IMG/VR virus record: IMGVR_UViG_2681813263_000014
DNA length: 5,518 bases
Direction: 5' to 3' (one strand)
Source of the DNA: a virus
Lineage: Duplodnaviria > Heunggongvirae > Uroviricota > Caudoviricetes
Made by a program: the position numbers and the translations under genes. A model generated the notes under the pieces. It ran no database searches. It was not told the DNA's origin and saw only the letters and a program-made list of their open reading frames with translations. Below, piece after piece: positions 1 through 5,518 of this stretch (positions are counted from its first letter, which is position 1; each line of letters starts with the position of its first letter).

Positions 1-280
1 ATGTATCAACACGGTTCAGCAACACCCGATACTTTTTCTAGGCTTCCACCACCAGCACGACAAGATGCCGCATACAGTGACCCAGTCAGTCCAGTTTTCA
101 GACAACCAGTGCGTCACCTTTTTGAAGGCGCTTTAAAGCACGTTTTAATCCAGGTCGGCCTGTCCTTGTTCCGCTTAATTTATCTTCAAATATTTGTTCA
201 TATCCTGCACAAACAAGAGCGTTTCGTTGCAGGTCTGTATTCTGGTCATTTGTTGATACCCTTACATAGCCAATCAGCAC
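1..280 (-). pseudogene. pin: Serine DNA invertase, Gin/Pin/Cin/Hin family, N-terminal part; probable pseudogene, and truncated by the window edge
   Basis: Minus-strand translation from GTG at 280-278 gives MLIGYVRVSTNDQNTDLQRNALVCAGYEQIFEDKLSGTRTGRPGLKRALKRLQKGDALVV, the typical N-terminus of Pin/Gin/Cin invertases, including the catalytic-serine context YVRVST. A GGGAG Shine-Dalgarno lies about 7 nt upstream. The frame hits TGA at 100-98 where these invertases have Trp, then continues as KLD*LGHCMRHL with further in-frame TGA and TAG codons. A full invertase of about 190 aa would also run past position 1. The ORF track extends the start to 304, which adds 8 unconserved codons. Confidence 0.6.
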
Positions 281-334
281 GCTGAATCTCCCGTCCAAAA
301 GCACAAATCATGCCATGCAGGCCAGAAACCGCCA

Positions 335-360
335 TTATCTAAAACCTCGGTTTACGAGAA
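335..360. repeat. Left inversion crossover site (gix/pix/cix-like, 26 bp)
   Basis: ttatctaaaacctcggtttacgagaa closely resembles the remembered gix consensus TTATCCAAAACCTCGGTTTACAGGAA. It matches the reverse complement of 3293-3318 at 22 of 26 positions with an identical central TC dinucleotide, and is itself an imperfect palindrome of two 12-bp half-sites. It lies 55 bp from the invertase start. Confidence 0.8.
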
Positions 361-1311
361 CTCGGCACAAGCGGGGAGAAAATACCGTTACTCAGTACAG
401 CGAATACCTGGACTAATCGACAAACATTCAGCGGTGGCCTTTCTGGTGAACTATCCGGCAATGCTTCTACAGCTGCAAAATTAAAAACTGCCAGGAAAAT
501 AAGCAATGTGGCTTTTGATGGTTCCTCCGATATCACATTAAAAGCAAGTCATGTTGGTGCGTTTGCCTTAGNNNNNNNNNNNNNNNNNNNNNTAGGGAAA
601 ACAGGAAGCACCGTTGCGAATGATAAAGCAGTTGGATGGAACTGGAGTAGCGGAGCCTATAACGCAACTATTAGTGGTGCATCAACGTTAATTATTCATT
701 TTTATATGGGAGAAGGAAGTTGTCCTGCAGCTCAGTTTCGGATTAATTATAAAAATGGCGGNNNNNNNNNNNNNNNNGGTATTTTTTATCGTTCAGCCCG
801 TGATGGTTATGGTTTTGAAGCCGACTGGTCCGAATTTTACACCACCAGAAAACCTTCAGCAGGAGATGTTGGTGCACTGCCGTTATCTGGTGGTCAACTG
901 AATGGTGCACTGGGTATCGGAACATCCAGTGCTCTTGGCGGTAATTCGATTGTATTGGGTGATAATGACACGGGCTTTAAACAAAAAGGCGATGGTAATC
1001 TGGATGTTTATGCTAATAACGTCCATGTTATGCGCTTTGTCTCCGGAAGCATTCAAAGTAATAAAACCATAAATATTACGGGACGTGTTAATCCCTCGGA
1101 TTACGGTAACTTTGATTCCCGCTATGTGAGAGATGTCAGACTTGGCACACGAGTTGTTCAGACCATGAAGAAAGGCGTGATGTATGAAAAATCAGGCCAT
1201 GTAATCACGGGGCTTGGTATTATCGGTGAAGTCGATGGTGATGATCCGGCAGTATTCAGACCAATACAAAAGTTAATTAACGGAACATGGTATAACGTAT
1301 CGCAGGTATAA
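343..1311 (+). CDS. Alternative tail-fibre C-terminal cassette (Sv'-like), startless and silent in this orientation
   Basis: Frame 1 is open from just after the TAA at 340-342 (inside the left site) to TAA at 1309-1311; the track ORF 508..1311 is its GTG-initiated part. There is no start codon or RBS at the 5' end. The C-terminus [15 protein letters not shown] ... [17 protein letters not shown] parallels the active stf C-terminus [16 protein letters not shown] ... [17 protein letters not shown]. Contains N-runs at 572-592 and 762-777. Confidence 0.85.
572..592. other. Run of 21 undetermined bases (N)
   Basis: Directly visible. The reading frame is maintained across it. Confidence 1.
762..777. 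other. Run of 16 undetermined bases (N)
   Basis: Directly visible. The same frame with a conserved fibre C-terminus continues downstream, so the masked length is probably the true length. Confidence 1.
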
Positions 1312-1313
1312 TC

Positions 1314-1847
1314 ATGCAGCATTTAAAAAACATTGTCGCAGGTAATCCAAAAACCGTTGAACAATACCAGCTAACAAAGAATTTTGATGTTATCTGGTTA
1401 TGGTCCGAAGATGGAAAAAATTGGCATGAGGAATTAAAAAACTTTCAGGAGGATACAATAAAACTGGCTTACACAGTTGAGGGAATAATTATTGCTATAG
1501 ACAAGGATGTATCAGCAATTAATCCAGAAGGTTTAAGTGTCGTTGAGTTGCCTGATATTACAGCAAATCGCCGGGCTGATATTTCGGGCAACTGGATGTT
1601 CAAAGATGGTGCGGTGATAAAGCGAACTTATACCGAGGAAGAGCAAAGGCAACAAGCGGAAAATGAAAAGCAGAGCCTGCTGCAGCTCGTCAGGGATAAA
1701 ACCCAGCTGTGGGACTCTCAGCTACAGCTGGGCATCATTTCCGATGAGAATAAACAAAAATTAACCGAGTGGATGCTCTATGCGCAGAAGGTTGAATCCA
1801 CAGACACCTCCAGCCTGCCAGTAACGTTTCCCGAACAACCAGAATGA
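1314..1847 (+). CDS. tfa: Tail fibre assembly chaperone, alternative copy (Tfa'/U'-like)
   Basis: ATG at 1314 lies 2 nt after the cassette stop, with AGGT 7 nt upstream. The N-terminus [22 protein letters not shown] is paralogous to the minus-strand tfa ([22 protein letters not shown]). 177 aa, stop TGA at 1845-1847. Tfa family assignment is from the remembered conserved N-terminus. Confidence 0.88.
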
Positions 1848-1850
1848 GAG

Positions 1851-1880
1851 AAGGCCCGCTATCGGGCCTTAATTTTTATT
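1851..1880 (+). terminator. Rho-independent terminator at the convergence point of the two tfa genes
   Basis: Perfect 8-bp stem aaggcccg (1851-1858) / cgggcctt (1863-1870) with loop ctat, followed by aatttttatt. It sits 4 nt after the tfa' stop. The downstream side on the minus strand is less T-rich, so bidirectional function is uncertain. Confidence 0.65.
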
Positions 1881-2403
1881 CAGGCTTTTGTGGCCATTCA
1901 GGATTTGCCGTATCCACACGGCTGACCAGAACACTGTAGCGTTCCCATGCTTCCAGTCGTGTGCGTTCCTCGTCTGTTGCCATATTCAGCCTGACAGCGC
2001 GTTCCAGCGGCTGGATGACTGATTCAGCTTCGGAAAGCAATGCGGCCTTTTGTGATTCGGCCTGTTGTTGCAGTTCCTGTTCTGTATATTCCCTCTTTAC
2101 TACTTTACCATCCAGAAACATCCATTTTCCGTTATTGTCTGCGTGACGATTTGCCGTAATATCAGGAACTTCAACTATGCTTAGCCCTTCAGGATTAATA
2201 GTTGAAACGTCTTTACTGACAGCAACGATGATGTTGTTCTCATCGTAAGCAATTTTTATGGTGTCTGGCTGAAAATTCTTTTGTTCCTCATACCAGTTTT
2301 TGCCATCTTCGCAAAAGAGCCATACCACGCCCGCTTTTTTAGTTAGCTGGTATTGTTCCGGTGTTTTCGGATTCCCGGCCTTAATATTTTTCAGGTGCAT
2401 CAT
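1876..2403 (-). CDS. tfa: Tail fibre assembly chaperone (Tfa/U-like), cognate to the currently expressed stf C-terminus
   Basis: ATG at 2403-2401 follows the stf stop (2407-2405) by one base, with GGGGAG about 9 nt upstream. Product [37 protein letters not shown]..., stop TAA at 1878-1876. The track ORF start at 2439 overlaps the end of stf and is an upstream extension. Confidence 0.9.
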
Positions 2404-2404
2404 C

Positions 2405-5386
2405 TTAAACACTCCCCACGTTGTACCATATTCCCCCAATCAATTTCTGAATTGGCCTTCTGGCAACAGTGTCGACAATATCATCCGCATTGCTGTTAAT
2501 TGCGGCTGTTAAAACATAACCTGACGCATCGCCAAAGCCGTAGTCGCGCCATACGTTTTTATATTCAATGCTGCCAAGACGAATATCCCGAACGACATGA
2601 TTATGCAGCCATGTGCTTAACCAGTTGTTTTCCCACACTGAACCATAAATATCGCCACTAGACGCAACTTGCGCACCACTTCCCAGCGCAAATCCCCCAT
2701 CTGTTTTAAAAATGAAATCACCACCACCATCTGAACCGTTATTAATATGAACACCATCACCACCGTTATCTTTCCACAAAAACATACGAATTCTTCCGTC
2801 TTCGTTGGCGAATGTAATGTGGTGGCGGTAATTACTTTTTAATCTAAAATTGCTGCCATTAGATTCAATATCTTTATAAAGATGTAATCCTAACTCATCA
2901 ATATGTCCGATGCGCGAACCATTTGAATAGAAGCTAATAATACCATCTCCATCTTGCCTAAATCCGGTGTCGTTATCTCCCAGAACAATGGAGTTTTCAC
3001 CCAGTGCGTTATCAGTAGCTCCAATAGCTAGACCTCCTTTAATTTTGGCCCCGTGGCTGACAGATATAGCACCTGTTCTCAGATTTATAGCGAATGGCCT
3101 TAATGGGCCGATATTACCGTTTTCGCCTTGTCCTTCAGCCGTCGGAATGAAATGAAGAAAATCTTCTGAACGACGGAAAATTAGACCGAAGGTATCATTG
3201 AAAATTCGCAGCGCATTCACCGTGCCAATTTTCAGTTCTCCGGTCATTTTATCGCCGGAACGCTGAACGGCGTTACCAGCCTTGTTTACCGTTTCCTGTA
3301 AACCGAGGTATTCGATAACGGCAGCAACGGTCGATTTCGCAAGAATATCCCGCCCGACTTTTGTCAGGGTTGCCAGGCTGGCGACATCATTCCCCGTAAA
3401 ATACGGAAACTTGCCTGCCGCAGTAGTAAGTCCGGCCAGCGCCGTCAGGGTGGCATCTTTCGGTTGCTTACCCGCAAGCGCGTTAGTCATGGTGGTCGCA
3501 AAATTCGGGTCGTTGCCCAGCGCCGCAGCCAGCTCGTTCAGCGTGTTCAGTGCATCAGGTGACGAATCTACAAGGGCGGCAATCGCAGCCATAACGAAAG
3601 CCGTGCTTGCGATTTGGGTATTATTCGTTCCCTGTCGCGCAGTTGGTGTTGTTGGCGTTCCGGTCAGTGCAGGACTATTTAAGGGCGCTTTCTTGTTCGT
3701 TTCACCCATTACCGCCTTAACCGCTTTTGGCGTTGCCGCCAGTGACTCGGAAGTGCTGTTGGTCGCACTGCTGAGCTGTACTATCCCCTTTTTCGTCGTG
3801 CTCGCATCCTCAAGCGCCACGGCGGATGCAATATCCTCTGCCCGTTTTGCTGCTGTCTCGGCGCGCGTTGCCGCGGATTCAGCAGCAACTTTGCTCTGAG
3901 ATGCAGCCGTCGCACTGCCTGCCGCCTCTGATGCTTTCGTTGTTGCTGTCGTGGCACTACCTTTCGCTGCTGACGCTTGTCTGGTCGCCTCATCTTTTGA
4001 AGCAGACGCAGATGATGCCGATGACGCCGCTGAACTGGCTGACGATGCGGCTGCTGCCTTAGAGGAAGCAGCATTGTCTGCTGAAGTCTTTGCATTTGTT
4101 TCAGAGGTTTTTGCTGCAGAAGCAGACCTCGCTGCTGCAGTGGCTTGCTCAGTGGCTTTGCCAGCCTTCGTTGTGGCTGTTGAAGCGGATGATGCGGCGC
4201 TTTCTGCCGATTTTCCGGCGGCGGTGGCACTGGCTGAGGCCTGCCCGGCACTTGTTGACGCGGCGCTGGCAGACGACGCAGCCGCTGTTTTTGAGCCTGC
4301 CGCAGCTGAGGCACTCTGTCCCGCTGCCGTTTCAGAAGACCTGGCGTTCGTCTCGGACGTTTTGGCCGCCTTCGCAGAATTTGCAGCCGCCGTCGCCGAG
4401 GAAGCTGCACTACTNNNNNNNNNNNNNNNNNNNNNNNNNNNNNNNNNNNNNNNNNNNNNNNNNNNNNNNNNNNNNNNNNNNNNNNNNNNNNNNNNNNNNN
4501 NNNNNNNNNNNNNNNNNNNNNNNNNNNNNNNNNNNNNNNNNNNNNNNNNNNNNNNNNNNNNNNNNNNNNNNNNNNNNNNNNNNNNNNNNGCCGAGGAAGC
4601 TGCGCTACTGGCGCTTGATGATGCGTTCGTTTCTGATGATTTTGCCGCCTCTTTTGAAGCCGACGCATCCCGGGCTGAGGTGGCAGCTTCTGACGCTTTC
4701 GTGGTCGCGGTGGATGCAGAAGTGGCTGCTGATTGTTGTGACGCTGCCGCATTCGTTTCTAACGTTTTCGCCGCACCGGCACTGGTAGCCGCCGCGCTTT
4801 TTGAGGACTCTGCAGCGGCAGCACTTTTTGAGGCTTCAGTGGCCTTTGTTGATGCCGTTCCTGCGCTGGAAGACGCTGACTGAGCCGACGAAGCGGCCTG
4901 TCCGGCTGACGTGCTGGCTGCACGTGCTGAATCTGCAGCATCAGTCGCATGGGTTGCCGCCTCACGGGCTGATGTGCTGGCATCGCTGGCTGATTTCTTC
5001 GCGGCTGCCGTGTTCTGTGCCACCGCGGACGCGTTACGCGCCACCTCTTCCACCATCAGCTCAAAACGGCGCAGTGCCTCCGGACGGGCATCATCCTCCG
5101 TCATGGCACCGAGAAAATCATTCAGCGTACCGGGTCGGGAATCTTCATACACGGTGATGGTCCCGGCATGTGACGGCGGGAATCCTTCCACCAACAGAAT
5201 AACGCTGTACTGACCGTACTCAACGTCCATGCTGTAACGCCCGGCTTCATCCGGATTTTCTGAGGCCAGCGTGTTCACCACCACCGTGGTGCTGTTACGT
5301 TTTGCTTTCAGCTGGATTGTGCAGTTCTGTACCGGTTTTCCTGTGCCGTCTTTCAGTACACCTGAAATCTTTACTGCCATATTCAC
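2405..5386 (-). CDS. stf: Side tail fibre protein, lambda Stf-like constant part fused to an invertible C-terminal variable part
   Basis: 993-codon ORF. The N-terminus [38 protein letters not shown] and the long Ala/Ser/Thr-rich region match my recollection of phage lambda Stf through ...[16 protein letters not shown]. The likely true start is the ATG at 5380 (MAVKISG). The sequence after EYLG (2405-3292) lies inside the invertible segment. Contains a 175-nt N-run at 4415-4589 with the frame preserved. Confidence 0.93.
3293..3318. repeat. Right inversion crossover site (gix/pix/cix-like, 26 bp), inside the stf coding sequence
   Basis: ttcctgtaaaccgaggtattcgataa is the inverted partner of 335-360. 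On the minus strand it encodes IEYLGLQE in the stf frame, at the constant/variable boundary. Confidence 0.8.
4415..4589. other. Run of 175 undetermined bases (N) inside the stf Ala/Ser-rich repeat region
   Basis: Directly visible. The stf frame is identical on both sides, so the run length is consistent with the true length (175 = 1 mod 3 fits the surrounding codon phase). Confidence 1.
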
Positions 5387-5391
5387 CCCAC

Positions 5392-5417
5392 AAAAAAGCC
5401 CGCCTGAACCGGCGGGC
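5392..5417 (-). terminator. Rho-independent terminator between lom and stf
   Basis: Read on the minus strand: gcccgcc ggttca ggcgggc followed by tttttt (plus-strand stem 5398-5404 / 5411-5417, A-tract 5392-5397). Lies 5 nt upstream of the stf ATG at 5386 and 28 nt downstream of the lom stop. Confidence 0.65.
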
Positions 5418-5444
5418 TGTCATAACACTGTGTTACCTGGCTAA

Positions 5445-5518
5445 TCAGAATTTATAACCGACACCCACGATGAAACCGTCAGTGCGCCAGAGACGTGTTG
5501 CTGTGGCGACCGTCATCA
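5445..5518 (-). CDS. lom: 3' end of an Ail/Lom-family outer-membrane protein gene (partial, continues beyond the window)
   Basis: Minus-strand frame reads ...TVATATRLWRTDGFIVGVGYKF then TGA (stop at 5447-5445). The aromatic C-terminal YKF is typical of Ail/Lom beta-barrel proteins, and the position upstream of stf matches lambda gene order. Only 24 codons are visible. Confidence 0.6.
   Translation of the reverse strand, partial: MTVATATRLWRTDGFIVGVGYKF

Follow-up and report, generated by a model that had tools for sequence, protein, structure and literature searches.

A probable two-state invertible segment of the Mu G type in the stf gene of a lambdoid prophage, next to a decayed invertase gene

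Inversion of DNA segments that carry alternative tail-fibre ends is a long-known, textbook mechanism, described for the G segment of phage Mu, the C segment of phage P1 and the P segment of the e14 prophage. Here, we analyse the tail-fibre gene stf in IMG/VR virus record IMGVR_UViG_2681813263_000014, a stretch of 5,518 nucleotides of a tailed phage (Caudoviricetes) that is referred to below, at its full length, as the window. The element found in this gene adds one more member to the Gin/Cin/Pin family of invertible tail-fibre segments.

The Mu G segment and the element in the window share the order invertase, crossover site, S'-like cassette and U'-like tail-fibre assembly gene (tfa), followed on the opposite strand by a U-like tfa and an S-like part. 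DNA of Mu and D108 is ~84% identical to the window over the aligned parts (the 5' part of the invertase gene, the cassette and both tfa genes). In Mu, as in the window, the site lies on codons for LGL, and pairs of Fis-consensus sequences stand at identical offsets. The constant part of the fibre is Sc in Mu, whereas in the window it is a lambda-type Stf (~690 codons, PF08400, encoded downstream of lom); another difference is that the invertase of the window is a dead stub. For the lambda-type constant part, the closest named analogue is the P segment of e14 in E. coli K-12 (stfE/stfP, tfaE/tfaP) with its invertase PinE. Inversion of the P segment fuses alternative tail-fibre open reading frames (ORFs) in a defective lambdoid prophage (PMC4272514), a property shared with the window. 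The e14 prophage has a working pinE and a 1797-bp segment with different repeats (PMC12529663), whereas the 2956-bp segment in the window has cassettes resembling those of Mu G and lacks a working invertase of its own. Each of the two occurs in either orientation in sequenced genomes, with 33% inverted in the case of e14 (PMC12529663) and 152 versus 375 genomes in the case of the locus type of the window. It was also demonstrated experimentally that PinQ of the Qin prophage inverts the e14 P segment in trans (PMC12529663).

Two further systems are relevant. A fibre switch of the gpH type in a P2-like prophage of E. coli strain 4/1-1 shares with the window, at 100% identity, the 473-nt fused junction described below, and is flanked by an intact 199-amino-acid recombinase. 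Its 740-amino-acid P2-type fibre has a different N-terminus, and its cassette diverges distally (268/307 amino acids identical). The Salmonella Hin/hix system has 26-bp sites and a serine invertase in common with the window, and its Fis-bound enhancer, ~100 bp from a site (PMC3798978), has a putative counterpart there, but Hin flips a promoter, whereas the segment in the window flips coding cassettes.

We conclude, with a probability of about 0.8, that the window contains a two-state switch of the Mu G-segment type in the stf gene of a lambdoid prophage, or of what remains of one, from the E. coli/Shigella group, and that its inversion is driven in trans. The parts of the proposed switch are as follows.

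1..304, minus strand: remnant of a serine DNA-invertase pseudogene, Gin/Pin family (PF00239; comparison with Mu Gin)
196..258, minus strand: candidate Fis-dependent recombinational enhancer (sis-like), a sequence-level proposal based on two Fis-consensus 15-mers
335..360, plus strand: 26-bp crossover site on the left, next to the invertase gene (core TC at 347-348; TAA 340-342 falls in its outer half)
349..1311, plus strand: silent stf C-terminal cassette B (Mu S'/S matches in PDB; Pfam gp37_C)
1314..1847, plus strand: tfaB, tail-fibre assembly chaperone paired with cassette B (Mu U'-like; PF02413 Caudo_TAP)
1876..2403, minus strand: tfaA, chaperone of the currently expressed cassette A (Mu U-like; PF02413)
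2405..3304, minus strand: cassette A, the 300 variable codons at the C-terminal end of stf as presently oriented (Pfam gp37_trimer)
3293..3318, minus strand: 26-bp crossover site on the right, within stf (plus-strand core GA at 3305-3306; encodes ...VIEYLGLQE)
3305..5380, minus strand: constant part of stf (lambda-type N-terminus, Ala/Ser-rich repeats, fibre repeats; interrupted by a run of N at 4415-4589)

The left crossover site reads TTATCTAAAACC-TC-GGTTTACGAGAA, and the right one, as reverse complement, reads TTATCGAATACC-TC-GGTTTACAGGAA. The two agree at 22/26 positions, and their cores, TC and GA, place them in inverted orientation around a segment of 2956 bp (349-3304). Each differs from Mu gix at 2-3/26 positions, the left site having three mismatches to gix TTATCCAAAACCTCGGTTTACAGGAA. 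Even when three mismatches were allowed, the site pattern matched the window exactly twice, and 0 matches were obtained in 200 shuffles. Multi-site systems (a shufflon, Min of p15B or the three-site P2-like variants) were considered and rejected, since only two sites are present at ≤3 mismatches. A stretch of 12 bp, ACCTCGGTTTAC, is common to both sites, so the fused product is the same wherever within it the exchange falls. This answers a worry of the first-pass annotation, a model-generated reading of the same DNA, that other site boundaries could put the junction out of frame.

To reproduce the inverted form, positions 349-3304 were inverted in silico and the result was translated from the stf start. 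In the native orientation, stf extends on the minus strand from ATG 5380 to a stop at 2405 (the ORF call being 5386..2405) and has 993 codons. In the inverted form, the minus-strand constant region joins plus-strand 349-1311 in frame, giving one ORF of 1014 codons. The first-pass annotation had proposed just such an in-frame fusion, and its account held: the junction and the terminus are as it described, the reading passes through the ORF at 508..1311 with 0 internal stops in 321 codons, and TAA 340-342, located in the outer half-site, is the sole upstream in-frame stop. The other two frames of cassette B contain 13 and 31 stops, versus 0 in the cassette frame. The boundary between constant and variable parts inside the fibre ORF thus carries a site, and the ORF is complete in frame in both orientations; because the sites fall on the LGL codons at this boundary, either orientation yields a complete Stf. 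The same is seen in the homologous contig L019, which is free of N and whose two orientations encode 918 and 925 amino acids from the first Met (open frames of 942 and 949 codons), and in homologous loci annotated with intact 941- and 968-amino-acid proteins in opposite orientations. Separate expression of the ORF at 508-1311 from its own promoter or start was rejected, since GTG 508 is a mechanical ORF call and homology extends upstream to 349. No promoter-like site was found upstream of this ORF inside the segment, and cassette B has no start codon of its own.

Junctions expected for either orientation were searched for in 5426 complete E. coli genomes, and genomes were counted at coverage of at least 80%.

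Fused predicted junction (250 nt of the constant region plus 223 nt of cassette B): 100% over 473/473 nt; 330 genomes
Native stf junction (constant region plus cassette A): best 98.6%; 242 genomes
Reciprocal predicted junction (invertase stub, outer half-site and start of cassette A): best 99.2% over 500/500 nt; 152 genomes
Window-type invertase-side junction (stub plus cassette B): best 99.8%; 375 genomes

The fused junction is present at 100% identity in many of these genomes, and the reciprocal junction occurs as well. The clearest case of inversion is provided by two near-clonal isolates of E. coli sequence type 131 (ST131) from one Swedish study, 4/0 (urinary tract infection) and 4/1-1 (faecal). 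Both carry the same locus, which adjoins trpA and an ompW fragment and includes the same incomplete recombinase gene, but in opposite orientations. The inner half-sites are swapped exactly as strand exchange at the central dinucleotide predicts, and after an in-silico flip of 3079 bp, 9598/9598 positions are identical. The cassettes of 4/0 and 4/1-1 partly differ from those of the window, and the flip is therefore established for the locus type rather than for this molecule. In strain 4/1-1, the intact 199-amino-acid recombinase mentioned above, WP_000905061.1, is encoded by a P2-like prophage, next to a homologous fibre segment that is likewise invertible. The equivalents of window positions 3305-3554 and 349-571 in this prophage (L012) are 100% identical to the window and lie in the P2-type fibre gene, by the baseplate genes, which points to tail-fibre modules having passed recently between prophages of the lambdoid and P2-like kinds. 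E. coli genomes hold up to 6-7 copies of these sequences.

The silent cassette has 321 codons with its two runs of N and 307 when these are collapsed as in the relatives. The first-pass annotation had asked for a comparison with known fibre tips; here, sequence searches suffice without a model, since cassette B matches solved Mu structures, namely the Mu S/S' chimera 8ju3 (E=8e-55, amino acids 70-164) and the Mu S tip 5yvq (E=5e-16, amino acids 230-305). Between these two regions, it matches T4 gp37 (6f45) and Pfam gp37_C. Near-identical copies (304-305/307 amino acids) occur as fusions with stf constant regions in L010, L011, L014, L015 and L016, and as silent cassettes in L013, L017 and L019. 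With the uninterrupted frame, these expressed copies support the earlier view of the cassette as intact rather than decayed, as far as this allele is concerned. At position 1159, the window and L019 have C (CAG, Gln), and eight relatives rich in insertion sequences (IS), L002-L009, have T (TAG), which cuts the silent cassette to 257 residues. Because L002-L009 carry this decayed copy, intactness is a property of the allele and not of the whole lineage. That the cassette is intact here while a sister lineage is losing it is consistent with selection that is weak or intermittent. With only 3-7 nucleotide differences separating the silent cassette from expressed copies, the ratio of nonsynonymous to synonymous substitution rates (dN/dS) gave no information. 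Around positions 838-846 (TAC ACC ACC AGA), the window, L019 and L003 are one codon shorter than 308-amino-acid expressed homologues; by our reading of the alignments, the absent codon is probably a Thr codon (YTTTRKPS in Mu S' versus YTTRKPS in the window), an in-frame difference in the receptor-binding region.

Each of the two opposed cassettes consists of a fibre C-terminus followed by its own tail-fibre assembly gene. TfaB matches PF02413 Caudo_TAP (E=5e-34) and Mu U in PDB 5yvq_B (E=6e-64); it shares 85% of its residues with Mu U', including 69/70 in the C-terminal part. TfaA matches PF02413 (E=8e-37) and is 82% identical to Mu U. Cassette A matches the Mu S' tip (E=2e-14) and Mu S in PDB, more weakly than cassette B matches its own hits. 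The C-terminus of cassette B is S-like and the C-terminal domain of its Tfa is U'-like (1110-1311 and 1314-1847); in cassette A, the former is S'-like and the latter U-like (2405-2610 and 1876-2403). This tip-chaperone pairing is the opposite of that in Mu, and the cassettes of the window are mosaics. Residues 21-50 of TfaB are U-like (26/30). The N-terminal domain of Mu Tfa reportedly binds the fibre tip; if so, the recombination breakpoints would lie inside tfa.

The constant part of the fibre is of the lambda type: an N-terminal domain (PF08400 phage_tail_N, E=1e-72) and fibre repeats (PF03406 Phage_fiber_2, E=3e-19) are present, Caudo_TAP chaperone genes follow downstream (PF02413 twice), and lom lies upstream.

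The invertase gene, in contrast to Mu gin, is not functional. Its open frame extends on the minus strand only from 304/280 down to 98 (60-68 amino acids), past which three in-frame stops (TGA, TGA, TAG) and a 3-codon deletion are encountered. Pfam recognises the N-terminal half only (PF00239 Resolvase, E=4.6e-15). Read through the stops, the remnant is 75% identical in amino acid sequence to residues 1-96 of Mu Gin, the window ending at the equivalent of Gin residue 96. At the DNA level, it closely matches Mu gin from the site to ~98, and the identity collapses below 98; so sharp a boundary suggests that recombination or gene conversion has overwritten part of an older, decayed copy. In homologous loci, the gene is annotated as a 60-amino-acid or incomplete "recombinase family protein". 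An intact serine invertase of ~185-200 amino acids, with a catalytic domain and a C-terminal helix-turn-helix, is absent from the position next to the segment, and the working enzyme that the first-pass annotation took for granted proves to be a dead 5' remnant. Since the adjacent gene is a decayed 5' stub, inversion needs an invertase in trans and the switch is not autonomous.

The stub nevertheless includes a putative enhancer. Two Fis-consensus 15-mers (KNNYRNNWNNYRNNM) are located at 244-258 and 196-210; their starts are 48 bp apart and they span 63 bp. Their offsets from the site, 102 and 150, are the same as in Mu gin, and 1/30 positions differ from those of Mu. We estimate that ~0.02 such pairs are expected by chance, given a match probability of 1/128 per position. 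The hin enhancer is a 65-bp Fis enhancer with two Fis sites at its ends, ~100 bp from one recombination site (PMC3798978), and the candidate at 196-258, which also lies ~100 bp from the left site, has the same geometry. A passage in that source, citing Kahmann 1985, places the Mu enhancer inside gin. Judged from sequence, the cis-acting parts of a Din-family member appear to be present in the window and its own enzyme is not.

The switch may be envisaged as follows. The stf promoter, the start codon and ~690 codons lie outside the segment, which holds two opposed modules, each made of a fibre C-terminus and a chaperone. An invertase dimer would bind each 26-bp site, and the two sites would be synapsed on the Fis-bound enhancer; the enzyme would then cut the central 2 bp and rotate the half-sites, inverting 349-3304. 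The present orientation should produce Stf with cassette A, together with TfaA, and inversion should replace them with cassette B (Mu S'/S-like) and TfaB (Mu U'-like), a change that is predicted to alter receptor specificity. The Din-family invertase would be supplied in trans, for example, by a co-resident P2-like or other prophage.

Several observations weigh against this scheme. The cis invertase is non-functional, with 60-68 amino acids before the first of three stops, and nothing in the window points to a trans-acting invertase in this genome; moreover, in L002-L009, which are the closest relatives, cassette B is interrupted by a nonsense codon. A segment that flipped once and is now locked, its own invertase being dead and no compatible one being at hand, would account for these facts, cassette B being intact merely for lack of time. 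The pseudogene state of the invertase gene and the change from CAG to TAG at 1159 in the closest relatives agree with such a frozen relic, as does the location of the locus, in many relatives, in a gutted prophage with lom beside lysis genes or IS elements. We nonetheless regard it as unlikely, because loci with the same truncated invertase gene exist in both orientations (375 versus 152 complete genomes), near-clonal isolates have flipped with no other change in 9.6 kb, and the window has kept both sites and the putative enhancer intact. At the other extreme, the orphan switch might be actively maintained, its sites and enhancer being kept Mu-like while the gene rots, with the invertase of one prophage controlling the Stf phenotype of another; we consider this improbable. 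It is still less probable, in our estimate, that the flip was retained as a host function because one form of Stf helps the cell, e.g., by blocking adsorption of other phages. There is a precedent in e14, where P inversion driven by PinQ creates StfE2, which was reported to block T2 adsorption (PMC12529663), and it would agree with the persistence of the locus in prophage remnants that lack other tail genes and with the conservation of sites and enhancer despite the dead invertase. However, recent descent together with gene conversion with paralogous prophage copies can explain the retention, and in L002-L009, which are rich in IS elements, the cassette has decayed. The trans-driven two-state switch therefore remains our preferred reading.

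The other points against the switch concern the continuity of the molecule. The window has three runs of N, at 572-592 (21 nt), 762-777 (16 nt) and 4415-4589 (175 nt). The first-pass annotation had listed the first two, correctly, but its count missed the third, which sits within the stf constant region. The two runs in cassette B are unreadable in this molecule, the 16-nt run alone is not a multiple of 3, and the frame would shift if that run were truly of zero length and the GG duplication beside it were kept. The runs could mask a frameshift, a stop or inserted foreign DNA, in which case cassette B would be a pseudogene. In every alignable relative, including contigs identical to the window on either side of run 572-592, the sequences that flank each run abut directly, with overlaps of 3, 2 and 20 nt, and the excess of the window over the relatives is 24, 18 and 195 nt. 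All three are multiples of 3, and the frame is therefore kept whether the runs are in-frame insertions or gaps. Counted with its duplicated flanks, each of the two cassette runs stays in frame (24 and 18 nt), the homologous protein continues in the same frame on either side, and 24/24 homologous cassettes have no residue at the two positions. L019 begins at the first base of the window and is 100% identical to it over 1-571, with 14 mismatches over 593-4414; its fused ORF is uninterrupted. The runs look like extra sequence relative to every relative and not like masked coding sequence; we read them as probable scaffold gaps of a draft assembly, in-frame insertions being the alternative. A lesion hidden beneath them is very improbable.

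A scaffolding error that joined paralogous tail-fibre genes from short reads, so that the constant region and the cassettes may not form one gene, is also improbable, though less remote. The three runs with their overlapping flanks could be expected of such a scaffold, as could the presence of up to 6-7 copies of these sequences per genome, and the window shares its first base with L019. Furthermore, the two sides of the third run have different best relatives. Positions 1-4414 are ~99% identical to L019 and L003, whereas 4590-5518 shows only 86% identity to L019 and is 100% identical to L028, L034, L048 and L053. Either a mosaic stf N-terminus or a scaffold of two paralogous prophage genes may underlie the contrast, and with a run of N between parts that differ in this way, stf may not be continuous throughout in this molecule. 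However, L047 and L040 bridge the third run directly, a match of 98.6-99.6% over 4125/4178-4414 running straight into a 100% match from 4590 onward, and the excess at all three runs is a multiple of 3. The parts that matter for the fusion, namely 3305-3554 plus the right site and 335-571, which includes the left site, are contiguous and free of N in the window and near-identical in the finished genome of 4/1-1 (L022). A search for a 195-nt tandem period, which would explain the third run as a difference in repeat copies, found none.

As the mechanism is textbook knowledge, the locus has little discovery value, and a switch that lacks its own enzyme and still flips in clinical lineages is its only mildly unusual aspect. 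It is of use for annotation: an "incomplete tail fiber protein" and a 60-amino-acid "recombinase" at a common E. coli/Shigella locus are the silent half of a fibre gene and the stub of an enzyme. The locus type still flips in clinical lineages such as ST131, and orientation differences at it are programmed rather than misassemblies. It also illustrates the natural inversion of a segment that has no working invertase in cis, which bears on recent claims that Pin enzymes remodel the Stf of another cryptic prophage.

Two features of the window lie outside the switch proper.

1851..1870, no strand: GC-rich hairpin with T-runs on either side, between the convergent tfa genes, read in the sequence and likely a bidirectional terminator
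5445..5518, minus strand: 3' end of a gene for an outer-membrane protein of the lom/ail family (...GVGYKF*), which, like lom in lambda, lies upstream of stf

In relatives, lom is annotated at the position matching 5445-5518. The prophage context is a remnant in several of them, and gpJ lies upstream in L010 and L011. To the left of the window, past the invertase stub, L001, L010, L011, L021 and L022 carry tail-fibre-assembly fragments, a class I S-adenosylmethionine (SAM)-dependent methyltransferase gene and a DUF4376 pseudogene, which look like debris of earlier fibre modules.

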